Positions 6,312-26,852 of a stretch of 64,000 nt of DNA are shown here, in pieces (position 1 is the stretch's first letter; every line of letters begins with the position of its first letter). Source of the stretch: Alphaproteobacteria bacterium. Its GTDB lineage: Bacteria; Pseudomonadota; Alphaproteobacteria; SHVV01. Under the pieces are notes generated by a model that did no database searches, was not told where the DNA came from, and was given only the letters and a program-made list of their open reading frames with translations. A program made the position numbers and the translations under genes. Location: assembly GCA_965261735.1 (NCBI GenBank), contig OZ253470.1, forward strand, positions 4,736,001-4,800,000. The letters are read 5' to 3'.

Positions 6312-6389
<78 letters not shown>

Positions 6390-24029: not shown

Positions 24030-24430
24030 TCGGTCGCCTCAATCATGTCGCCATTGCGGTCCCCGACCTTGCCACCGCGTCACGCCAATACCGCGACGTC
24101 CTGGGCGCCCAGGTGTCCGAGCCCGCGGATCTGCCGGAGCATGGCGTCACCGTCGTCTTTGTCGAACTCGGCAATACCAAGATCGAACTCCTCCACCCGT
24201 TGGGCGAGGAATCGCCCATAGCCGCGTACCTGGCGCGCTCGGCCGCCGGTGGTATTCATCACGTGTGCTACGAAGTCGCCGACATCGCGGCCGCGCGCGA
24301 TAGCCTGGTCGCCGCCGGCGCCCGCATCCTCGGCGATGGCCAAGCGCGTCCCGGTGCCCACGGCAAGCCGGTCCTCTTCCTGCACCCCAAGGACTTCTCC
24401 GGCACGCTGATCGAGCTCGAGGAGGTCTGA
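24026..24430 (+). CDS. mce: Methylmalonyl-CoA epimerase
   Basis: [42 protein letters not shown]. Confidence 0.95.
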   Translation: MIGRLNHVAIAVPDLATASRQYRDVLGAQVSEPADLPEHGVTVVFVELGNTKIELLHPLGEESPIAAYLARSAAGGIHHVCYEVADIAAARDSLVAAGARILGDGQARPGAHGKPVLFLHPKDFSGTLIELEEV

Positions 24431-24431
24431 G

Positions 24432-24674
24432 GTGACATGGGTGACGGGGCTCGCCACCTACCTCATCATCTGGTGGCTGGTTCTGTTCATGGTGTTGCCC
24501 TTCGGCGTGAGGCCGCCGGATAACCCCGAGCCAGGGATGGCGGCGAGCGCGCCCGAGAAGCCGCAGCTGTGGCTGAAGGCGGGCGTCACCACGCTGGTCG
24601 CGGGGCTGATCTGGGGGGTCGTGTTCGCCCTCATCGAGAGCGATCTCATCACGTTTGCCGAGGCGGGGCCCTGA
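24432..24674 (+). CDS. DUF1467 family membrane protein
   Basis: YLIIWWLVLFMVLPFGV...G..SAP; usual position after mce. Confidence 0.85.
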   Translation: MTWVTGLATYLIIWWLVLFMVLPFGVRPPDNPEPGMAASAPEKPQLWLKAGVTTLVAGLIWGVVFALIESDLITFAEAGP

Positions 24675-24683
24675 GCATCGGAC

Positions 24684-24713
24684 AAAAAAAGCAAGGCCCA
24701 GTATGGGTCTTGC
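24684..24713 (-). terminator. Rho-independent terminator of the sRNA
   Basis: Minus strand GCAAGACCCA-TAC-TGGGCCTTGC-TTTTTTT (9/10 paired). Confidence 0.8.
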
Positions 24714-24823
24714 CCTCGCGCTTCAAGTTACGCGGCCGCTATACGGCTCAGTCGCTTCTCCCGGGTACGATTCCTCCCTGAACCTGGGCTTCGCATCGTA
24801 GGGCCGCAGCCCTATGATATGCT
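24684..24823 (-). ncRNA. Putative trans-encoded sRNA (~140 nt) at the alpha-r9/Smr9C-like locus; candidate sponge of alpha-r8-type sRNAs
   Basis: Minus-strand promoter, 5' hairpin (24793-24822), loop-exposed AGGGAGGAA (24771-24779), terminator with U7, no credible ORF; DUF1467/proS position recalled for alpha-r9. Confidence 0.7.
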
Positions 24824-24828
24824 CCAAT

Positions 24829-24857
24829 AGTGTAGGGTATATGGTCCCCGGCGTCAC
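24829..24857 (-). promoter_or_regulatory. Putative sigma70 promoter of the sRNA
   Basis: Minus strand GTGACG (24857-24852), 17-nt spacer, TACACT (24834-24829). Confidence 0.6.
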
Positions 24858-24967
24858 CATGAATTTGGCGCGAAACAACACCTTAACAAGTAGCGTGGCC
24901 GCGCCGCGTGAACTTCGATCGGCGCACGCGATTCGTCGCATGTTGGCCTAAACGGGTGATGCGCATC

Positions 24968-25408
24968 ATGCGCGCAACTGGCGCCTCGCGCGCTGCTGAC
25001 TGGATGTCGACCATCGCCATCGCTTTCGTGGCGGCCCTCTGGGTCGAGCGAGGCGCCATGGCCCAGGACAAGTACGTGATCACCAAGTCCGACTGCCGGC
25101 AGCTGGTGCGCCACAAGCCCCGCCCCGACGTCACCTTCACGCCCGGCGTTGACGTTCGCGGCAAACCGGTGGCACCGGCAAATCTCGGCGGTAGTCGGAT
25201 CGCGCTCCCCGACGAGATCGTCATCGACGTCACGGTGCAGGTTTACGAGGCGCTCGGCCGAACGCCGCCCAAGGGGCTCGGGGACAGCGCCGCGCGCCTC
25301 GGCACGATAGTGCTCCGGGACGGCGCGCTCACCTTCAACGGTGAGCCCCTCGGAACCGATGGCGAGGCGGCCATTGCGTCCGCGTGCCGGGAGATGGTGG
25401 AGCCGTAG
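24968..25408 (+). CDS. Hypothetical exported protein
   Basis: Hydrophobic signal ending AMA-Q, C.QLVRH.PRPDV.F.PGVDVRGKPVAPA.L pattern, C-terminal Cys; start uncertain. Confidence 0.7.
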   Translation: MRATGASRAADWMSTIAIAFVAALWVERGAMAQDKYVITKSDCRQLVRHKPRPDVTFTPGVDVRGKPVAPANLGGSRIALPDEIVIDVTVQVYEALGRTPPKGLGDSAARLGTIVLRDGALTFNGEPLGTDGEAAIASACREMVEP

Positions 25409-25532
25409 GAGTAGGGCCATCGGGCGCGTTCGCGGCGCGCGCATTGCCTTGGAAGAGGCCTTTCCCTAAAGTCACGATGCTCTGACCCGGCGGCACCGGG
25501 CGGTTCCCGGCGAGGCGTTGACGGGACGCACC

Positions 25533-26852
25533 ATGCGGTTGTCCAGTTTCTTCATGCCGACGCTCAAGGAGAATCCGAGCGAGGCCCAGATCGTCTCGCA
25601 CCGGCTGATGCTGCGCGCCGGCATGGTGCGCCAGTCGAGTGCCGGCATCTATTCCTGGCTGCCGCTTGGTTTGCGCGTGCTGCGCCGCATCGAGCGGATC
25701 GTCCGCGAGGAGCAGGACGCGGCAGGCTGCCAGGAGTTGCTGATGCCGACGGTTCAGCCAGCCGGCCTGTGGCGCGAGAGCGGCCGCTACGAGGACTACG
25801 GCAAGGAGATGCTGCGCATCAGCGACCGGCACGCGCGCGAGATGCTGTATGGGCCGACGAACGAGGAGCTGATCACCGATATCGTGCGCCACACGATCAA
25901 GAGCTACCGCGACCTGCCCAAGCTGCTCTATCACATCCAGTGGAAGTTTCGCGACGAGGTGCGCCCACGCTTTGGCGTCATGCGCGGGCGCGAGTTTCTC
26001 ATGAAGGACAGCTACTCCTTCGACCTCGACTACGAGGGGGCGCGGCGCTCCTACAACAAGATGTTCCTGTGCTACCTGCGCACGTTCGCGCGCATGGGCC
26101 TCAAGGCGATTCCAATGCGGGCCGAGACCGGGCCCATCGGAGGCGATCTCAGCCATGAGTTCGTGATTCTCGCCAATACCGGCGAGTCGGCCGTCTTTTG
26201 CCACCGCGACCTGGTCGAGCGTGACGTTCTGGCAAGCGACATCGACTATGAAGCCGACCTCGATCCCGCGGTCGAGGCTTGGACCAGCTTTTATGCCGCC
26301 ACCGACGACAAGCACGATCCCGCCCGCTTCGAGCAGGAGGTTGCGGCAAACGATCAGATCGCGGCGCGAGGCATCGAGGTCGGCCACATCTTCTATTTTG
26401 GCAACAAGTACTCGGTCGCCATGAATGCCACGGTCGCCGGCCCTGAGGGGCAGGGGGTGAGCCTGGAAATGGGCTCCTACGGTATCGGCGTCTCGCGGCT
26501 TGTCGGCGCGATCATCGAGGCCAGCCACGACGACGCCGGCATCATCTGGCCCGAGGCCGTCGCCCCGTTCGATGCCGGCCTCCTCAACCTCAAGCCCGAC
26601 GACGCCGCGTGCGAGCGCATCGCCGGCGACCTCTACGCCAAGTTCCGCAACGCGGGCCGCGACGTGCTGCTGGATGACACCGATGAACGCCCAGGCGCCA
26701 AGTTCGCGACGATGGACCTCATCGGGCTCCCGTGGCAGGTGGTGGTGGGGCCGCGCGGAGCGGCGGCCGGCCTCGTCGAGGTCAAGGAGCGCCGGAGCGG
26801 CAAGCGTGAGGAGCTCACGCCTGAGGCGGCACTGGCACGGCTCGCCGCTTGA
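25533..26852 (+). CDS. proS: Proline--tRNA ligase (short alphaproteobacterial type)
   Basis: [42 protein letters not shown]. Confidence 0.97.

Follow-up and report, generated by a model that had tools for sequence, protein, structure and literature searches.

Genomic context of the locus

The locus described here lies in a 64-kb window, by which we mean the whole stretch of 64,000 nucleotides that was analyzed, itself part of a single contig of 5.03 Mb with 65.7% G+C. The gene order derived from Pfam matches runs from birA, coaX, an RNase J gene, a glyoxalase-fold gene (methylmalonyl-CoA epimerase-like) and a DUF1467 gene to the candidate small RNA (sRNA) gene, which is on the minus strand, and continues beyond it with a small ORF, proS, a lolC/E-like gene, a lolD-like gene and dnaE. 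One small ORF separates the candidate from proS, a gene that also anchors the ar9 sRNA in Rhizobiales. The protein-coding neighbors, in window coordinates, are:

24432..24674, plus strand: DUF1467 gene (Pfam PF07330, E 4.8e-24), convergent with the sRNA gene
24908..25408, plus strand: small ORF, divergent neighbor, no Pfam match, true start uncertain
25518..26852, plus strand: proS, prolyl-tRNA synthetase (Pfam tRNA-synt_2b and HGTP_anticodon)

The small ORF is a real gene, with tblastn matches at the loci of four of six relatives (E 1e-14 to 3e-33). In relatives, its versions have, by eye, a hydrophobic, signal-like beginning. A promoter-like site on the plus strand, TTCGCA-17-TATGAT (24790-24818), falls inside the region of the sRNA 5' hairpin and is directed at the small ORF and proS, which it may serve as a divergent promoter. 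The window also holds two ordinary tRNA genes, at 1521-1593 and 6312-6386, both on the plus strand.

Anatomy of the predicted transcript

The features of the candidate, in window coordinates, are:

24857-24852, minus strand: -35-like element GTGACG, followed by a 17-nt spacer
24834-24829, minus strand: -10-like element TACACT, read from the sequence
24822..24684, minus strand: predicted sRNA transcript of ~139 nt, its start placed 7 nt past the -10 element and its end at the last U
24822-24793, minus strand: 5' hairpin, perfect-looking, made of GCAUAUCAUAGGGC (24822-24809), a UGCG loop and GCCCUACGAUGC (24804-24793)
24789-24772, minus strand: anti-aR8 core GCCCAGGUUCAGGGAGGA, with the conserved block CCCARGUUCRGG(G)A
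24788-24782 and 24766-24760, minus strand: stem CCCAGGU/ACCCGGG of the centroid structure, with one A/G mismatch and a loop carrying CAGGGAGGAAUC
24762-24756, minus strand: second block GGGAGAA, read from the sequence
24714-24684, minus strand: Rho-independent terminator, an interrupted stem followed by U7, 10 nt beyond the convergent DUF1467 stop

Every sequence feature that the earlier note had listed for this locus is found, at the coordinates given there, when the minus strand is read. The 5' hairpin is part of both the minimum free energy and the centroid structure. In the loop of the second stem, the GGAGGAA part of the core has unpaired probabilities of 0.56-0.99; for the CCCAGG part, pairing is predicted. 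Second G/A-rich blocks are seen in three homologues as well (L049, L088 and L090). On the plus strand, the U-run after the terminator hairpin is missing. That strand reads ATTCCTCCCT at 24770-24779, identical at nine of ten positions to the seed 10-mer of the aR8 sRNA; the 10-mer, which the earlier note had cited along with this match, is indeed given as UUUCCUCCCU in the accessible text of PMC12559287.

General-purpose tools do not pick out the locus, and three of the results below (consensus scan, fold and blastn) would fit a chance arrangement. A simple consensus scan returned zero terminators and left the minus-strand promoter unreported, its sole promoter-like site being the plus-strand one at 24790-24818; in our reading, the terminator stem contains an internal A.C mismatch, which the scan disallows. 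The fold of the whole RNA is unexceptional (z = -1.45, with 13 of 200 shuffles folding equally well). At gathering scores, a scan of the whole window with Rfam placed no family at the sRNA locus, nor did a scan of 24300-25300 at E <= 10, which gave no RF00519 match on either strand; the locus is unannotated in this sense, as had been claimed. A blastn search with a 211-nt region against 60 relatives and the genome itself retrieved only the locus, which is single-copy. The listing of metatranscriptome runs gave small shares (0.06-0.22) in four RNA runs, which constitute no evidence on expression.

Conservation in the taxonomic family

We took the DUF1467 locus from seven other genomes of the family. 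The gene was found in six, the seventh being an 89%-complete assembly; with the present genome (G000) counted, seven assembled family loci were available (G000-G005 and G007). Promoter and core occur in all seven, and the unit is contiguous through a U7-8 terminator in six. In five of the six relatives, the strand opposite DUF1467 carries, in order, a -35-like [AG]TGAC[GCT], exactly 17 nt, TAnnnT, a variable leader, the block CCCARGUUCRGG(G)A, and a GC-rich hairpin with U6-8 directly past the DUF1467 stop. Over all seven loci the -35 pattern is [AGC]TGAC[GCTA], again with a 17-nt spacer, and at the same spacing the -10 elements of the relatives read TAAACT, TAGGCT, TACAGT (twice), TATTAT and TACACC. 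All family loci have the hairpin and U6-8 terminator 10 nt beyond the convergent DUF1467 stop.

The recurrence of promoter, core and terminator at the same syntenic place gives substance to the minus-strand gene that the earlier note had proposed. Four genera retain the minus-strand promoter and the U7-8 terminator, with flanks too diverged to be detected by blastn. Predicted lengths are 66-111 nt in the family homologues against ~139 nt in G000. Genus g2 and Rfam ar9 have a hairpin in the position of this 5' hairpin; genus g4 has none. In one relative (G002), a mobile element separates the terminator from the promoter and a perfect core, which stand at a distance of 1.5 kb. This element (L152 from about 1575 onward, and L013, from the nearest genus) has terminal inverted repeats of ~22 nt and a short target duplication, and its palindromic end occurs twice in L013.

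The most conserved stretch in all seven family loci is the block CCCARGUUCRGG(G)A, exactly the part that is complementary to aR8. The Shine-Dalgarno (SD)-like GGAGG is not conserved among the six family homologues: two read GGGACGG and one GGGAAGA, variants that stand in place of GGAGG within one genus, and two read GGGAGAGG. Judged on these sequence comparisons, the segment 24822..24684 very likely constitutes a genuine sRNA gene of ~139 nt on the minus strand, lying between the DUF1467 gene and proS.

Kinship with the ar9/Smr9C family

The neighborhood of proS recalls the ar9 family. In the available text of PMC3927594, all relatives but one of SmelC289 (Smr9C, the ar9 RNA) adjoin proS, as the earlier note had stated. 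The family is reported in Rhizobiaceae, Brucellaceae and Phyllobacteriaceae (PMC3346310, accessible part). SmrC9 measures 149 nt, binds Hfq and reaches its highest abundance during log phase in rich medium (PMC2780559 and PMC2848018, accessible parts), and binding of Smr9C to Hfq in S. meliloti is described in the available text of the latter (PMC2848018). No function or target of ar9 was found published in the papers that could be searched.

From named alphaproteobacterial assemblies we collected 80 proS loci and searched them with Rfam, again at gathering scores. The ar9 model, RF02343, matches three of them, in a Neorhizobium, a 'Rhizobiales bacterium' and an Aurantimonas. All three matches are upstream of proS on the opposite strand, and all three have GTGACA-N17, a 5' hairpin, the core CAAGUCUUGGGAGGA and a GCAAGG..CCUUGC-U7-9 terminator. 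At the candidate locus (24300-25300), RF02343 stays below the E <= 10 reporting level, membership calling for at least 45 bits; its best match anywhere in G000 scores 18.6 bits, at another place. The candidate is therefore a divergent ar9-like gene and not a member by the Rfam definition. At E <= 5 the model also finds none of 11 ar9-like loci of other orders, even with an ar9-identical core: loci such as L044 and L091 have the exact ar9 core, yet are negative. Across 150 genomes sampled over the class it gave no match anywhere, an uninformative outcome, since the controls likewise gave none.

A 26-nt profile of the core (E <= 10) matches 39 of the 80 proS loci, 38 upstream of proS on the opposite strand and one on the proS strand, and so favors a considerably wider family; in 23 loci, a crude finder of terminators places one downstream on the ar9 strand. 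Set against this simple core profile, with 38 of the 80 proS loci, the Rfam ar9 model, with three, is far too narrow. Between the core of the candidate and the ar9 consensus core CAAGUCUUGGGAGGAU, 11 of 16 positions are identical. When the profile is built from 16 cores outside the family, the candidate is its top match genome-wide, a weak one (E 0.24, 14 bits), and the second match is the antisense strand of the aR8 gene of G000.

The candidate shares with ar9 its position upstream of proS on the opposite strand; the unusual G-first -35 element GTGAC[AG] followed by N17, as in all three RF02343-positive loci; the 5' hairpin; a core comparable in form to AAGUYYNGGGAGGA, at 11 of 16 positions; and a GCAAGG-type terminator, with U7-9 in ar9 and U7 here. 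Like ar9 it is, in silico, an independent unit with a sigma-70-type promoter and a Rho-independent terminator, and its predicted ~139 nt compare with the ~140-150 nt given in the accessible parts of PMC3927594 and PMC3346310. It differs in its middle part, which is unrelated, and its family lies outside Rhizobiaceae, Brucellaceae and Phyllobacteriaceae. We consider it highly probable that the candidate is both a real gene and a relative of ar9. The earlier note had cautioned that the locus might belong to a known family; this caution is borne out, the candidate being an ar9-like gene.

Complementarity to the aR8/MmgR RNA

The aR8/MmgR/SuhB family (RF00519) is represented in G000 by a match of 38.6 bits, against a cut-off of 41, at G000:C1:1822620-1822701 on the minus strand. 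The match lies 154 nt from an FGase gene, the hallmark neighbor of aR8 in the available text of PMC12559287. Six of the seven other family genomes have RF00519 matches above the cut-off. In six family genomes the aR8 copies read ...UCCCUGAACUUGGG, and ...UUUCCUCCCUGAACUUGGG ahead of the terminator. Compared by eye, the last 14 letters of the family stretch UUUCCUCCCUGAACUUGGG and the conserved block CCCAAGUUCAGGGA are exact reverse complements. Such an exact reverse-complement block is seen by eye in four relatives (G002, G003, G005 and G006); in G002 and G006, a pattern match opposite their aR8 genes confirms it.

The conserved block is thus antisense to a stretch of aR8 that spans the 3' half of its seed, its linker and the opening bases of its terminator stem, so that the partner would be specifically aR8 and not anti-SD sRNAs in general. 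The earlier note had read the RNA as an SD-mimic decoy of anti-SD sRNAs. One part of that proposal stands, the core being antisense to an sRNA seed; the SD mimicry does not, the SD-like GGAGG being unconserved and the probable partner being aR8. The search for complementary sRNAs in the genome that it had suggested was fruitful, the canonical aR8 next to the FGase gene being among those found.

The plus strand of the candidate core reads as an aR8 seed and linker (ATTCCTCCCTGAACCTGGG). The candidate is nevertheless a mirror image of aR8 rather than a member. We rejected membership of the plus strand in the suhB family: there is no RF00519 match here at E <= 10, where at least 41 bits are needed, and neither a U-run nor a plus-strand terminator.

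Other aR8-like sequences were observed in G000. Three near-identical sRNA-like units of ~93 nt (G000:C1:272852-272944 and 3335810-3335902, plus strand; 1913046-1913138, minus strand) each carry GGCUUCCUCC(C/A)UCCCGC and a strong terminator. A 40-nt region upstream of each is conserved too, their suhB scores are 21.7-26.9 bits, and they resemble a sibling family of anti-SD sRNAs. Two further candidates (G000:C1:2066457-2066527 and 2157917-2157990, both minus strand; 30.5 and 29.1 bits) share a hairpin, carry CCUUCC or CCUCCUCC seeds, and may be siblings of aR8, like SisB-D in Caulobacter.

Within G000, 16 of 17 positions of core and aR8 are paired, including two G-U pairs, with one mismatch. 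In cofolding the predicted helix forms and the energy gain is -13.5 kcal/mol; 200 dinucleotide shuffles give -4.7 +/- 2.7, and one of them reaches the observed gain. When 8061 SD-like sites of the genome were ranked by duplex energy with the aR8 single strand, the candidate was the fifth distinct site (-35.1), behind the trivial antisense strands of two aR8-type genes, a ribosome-binding region at C1:1137670 and one coding site. The candidate site is not among the best 30 listed ungapped matches to the aR8 single strand; the ungapped genome counts consist mostly of scattered coding matches and are uninformative. Other CCUCCC-bearing sRNA candidates of G000 give equal or larger cofold gains (-15.5 to -19.8 kcal/mol). 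The aR8 of G000 has drifted, with CUUGAC where the family has CUGAAC, and the core shows no matching change; accordingly, this pair is only eighth of 15 in its row of the duplex matrix described below. Energy alone does not single out aR8 as the partner in G000, and the pairing is weaker than in the relatives.

The ribosome-binding region just mentioned (G000:C1 ~1137650-1137690, plus strand) is the best non-trivial partner of the aR8 single strand, at -39.2 kcal/mol, and is likely an mRNA target of aR8. It belongs to a small lipoprotein-like ORF whose signal peptide and mature part are in different frames in the assembly.

Covariation across lineages

To the family pairs we added aR8 sequences from ten further genomes with an ar9 or ar9-like gene. 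The set left out two suhB matches that are the opposite strand of the ar9-like locus itself, as well as all matches without CCUCCC. Lineage-specific letters match up on the two sides: ACUCGGG is opposite CCCGAGU, AGACUUGACCGCG is opposite CGCGGUCAAGUCU in Rhizobiaceae, and ACUAGACCGCA is opposite UGCGGUCUAGU in Aurantimonas. In a 15 x 15 matrix of duplex energies, cognate ar9-like/aR8 pairs average -39.9 kcal/mol against -33.7, and none of 10,000 permutations reaches this value, a figure that overstates the support because the genomes are related and not independent. The cognate partner is the best of its row in six of 15 rows.

An ungapped count over the 12 linker columns beside the invariant CCUCCC/GGGAGG in the 15 genomes shows five columns with changes on both sides that keep the pair. 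These are columns 2, 3, 7, 9 and 10, with A-U/G-C twice, U-A/C-G/A-U, G-C/A-U and G-C/C-G. Two rows (G001 and G004) are one base out of register and a third (G162) has a one-base insertion, which lowers their linker counts. All these covariation figures are descriptive and are not probabilities.

Alternative explanations

Part of this evidence would also fit an ordinary trans-acting sRNA that pairs with mRNAs through its G-rich core or elsewhere, the match to aR8 being a by-product of descent from an inverted copy. In the searchable papers ar9 is without a published target, and CrfA, the sponge of aR8-type RNAs in Caulobacter, was itself first read as an mRNA regulator (PMC12559287, accessible part). 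Moreover, the opposite-strand suhB-like copies at three of the 80 proS loci provide a route of descent, and the match to aR8 could stem from such an inverted copy of aR8 and owe nothing to selection for pairing. Yet descent alone predicts no two-sided changes once the loci have separated, whereas linker positions do change in this way across lineages, and the most conserved block is exactly the anti-aR8 stretch; we regard this explanation as unlikely. We find it quite unlikely that the RNA is a general SD mimic, titrating many anti-SD sRNAs or the 3' end of 16S rRNA via GGGAGGA. Such a decoy would not lack partners: G000 has at least nine further terminator-bearing candidates of the CCUCC(C) type, several with cofold gains of -15 to -20 kcal/mol with the candidate. 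It is GGAGG, however, that the family fails to conserve (GGGACGG in two of six, GGGAAGA in one, GGGAGAGG in two), whereas the flanking CCCARGUUC (compare CCCAGGUUC), complemented by aR8 alone, is conserved.

The minus-strand signals might also be fortuitous, the locus being either a decaying remnant of an aR8 paralogue or the source of a plus-strand product, such as an aR8-like RNA or the 5' untranslated region of the small ORF and proS. The promoter-like site at 24790-24818 points in that direction, and in other orders the plus strand at this place scores as suhB (53.4, 49.6 and 41.8 bits). Against this, the present plus strand gives no suhB match at E <= 10 and no U-run past its hairpin, and a minus-strand promoter and U7-8 terminator would hardly be kept in four genera with diverged flanks; we hold this reading to be improbable. 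That the RNA encodes a small protein is scarcely credible, and we rejected a coding function. By eye, a 22-codon AUG frame does run through the core, in frame with a 72-aa ORF (24723-24941), but its AUG lies inside the 5' hairpin with no SD ahead of it, and the frame is not conserved: in L014 the AUG frame crosses the core in another register, and L016-L018 have no AUG before the core. A protein sponge of the CsrA type was dropped, the RNA having only two GGA-bearing blocks.

Origin of the ar9-type core

On the proS strand, suhB scores exceed the cut-off at three of the 80 proS loci, and a fourth reaches 35.4 bits. The three matches, from three other lineages, are:

L071 609-694, plus strand: suhB/aR8 match on the proS strand, 53.4 bits
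L096 780-855, plus strand: suhB/aR8 match on the proS strand, 49.6 bits
L051 2231-2312, plus strand: suhB/aR8 match on the proS strand, 41.8 bits

These matches stand at the ar9 position, so that the ar9-type core is there literally the antisense of an aR8-like copy. This suggests the hypothesis that ar9 began as an antisense transcript of an aR8 paralogue. L096 has terminators on both strands and is possibly an overlapping pair of antisense sRNAs. Extending the idea, the whole proS-linked ar9 lineage, comprising Rhizobiales, the present family and several orders, would be an ancient, dedicated antagonist of aR8/MmgR, derived from the antisense strand of an aR8 paralogue upstream of proS, with CrfA having arisen independently; we put this forward tentatively, and our doubts somewhat outweigh our confidence.

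Proposed function as a sponge of aR8

For the candidate itself we lean slightly towards the overall reading of a divergent, proS-linked sRNA of the ar9/Smr9C type that acts as a sponge of its own aR8 via the loop-exposed core. This builds on what is observed: gene anatomy, conservation, synteny, complementarity, and covariation with aR8 across lineages. A non-coding RNA of ~139 nt would be made from its own minus-strand promoter and end at the U7 terminator. Contact would start between the loop-exposed GGGAGGA and the single-stranded CCUCCC of aR8, from which the helix would spread along the linker, the core (24789-24772) pairing with the seed and linker of the aR8 at G000:C1:1822620-1822701, probably on Hfq, for which G000 has a gene. 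This would hide the anti-SD seed of aR8, perhaps make aR8 less stable, and free the mRNAs that aR8 represses. Pairing with aR8 is probably functional; the direction of control proposed here, sponge rather than target, we hold to be about as likely as not. Transcription, Hfq dependence and direction of control, like the conditions of expression and the physiological output, are what we infer from the sequences.

A precedent is CrfA of Caulobacter crescentus, which the earlier note had named as a sponge of Sis sRNAs; the accessible text of PMC12559287 indeed describes it as a sponge of SisA-D, of the aR8 family, with its site in a G/A-rich second stem-loop and an Hfq-dependent effect involving mutual decay. 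The candidate likewise has a G/A-rich stem-loop complementary to the aR8 10-mer and its flanks, a predicted masking of the seed, and an hfq gene in its genome. Its complementarity extends over the aR8 seed region (16 of 17 pairs, one of 200 shuffles, covariation), and its binding site is predicted to lie in an exposed G/A-rich loop (centroid hairpin, 0.56-0.99 unpaired). The two differ in that the evidence for CrfA is experimental and that for the candidate computational alone. The available text of PMC12559287 makes no mention of ar9, Smr9 or SmelC289, and a pairing of ar9 with aR8/MmgR is not stated in the largely open-access literature searched. The idea that CrfA occupies the proS locus was rejected for Caulobacterales on one example, Phenylobacterium (L110), in which the spacer between DUF1467 and proS is ~65 nt and holds no sRNA.

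Implications

To our knowledge, aR8/MmgR is present in almost all Alphaproteobacteria, and CrfA of Caulobacter is its sole known antagonist. The ar9/Smr9C RNA has been a conserved, Hfq-bound orphan sRNA since 2007, and S. meliloti is already known to express both ar9- and aR8-type RNAs. Should the pairing be real, the orphan ar9 family gains a function, a sponge circuit steering carbon-state responses becomes a general feature of Alphaproteobacteria, and the system clearly illustrates how a sponge can arise on the antisense strand of a paralogue of its target. That ar9 as a whole is an antagonist of aR8 would, if true, be the implication of wider interest to the field: aR8 and ar9 would together act as a conserved switch of two RNAs throughout Alphaproteobacteria, and Caulobacter, with CrfA, would have solved the same problem independently.
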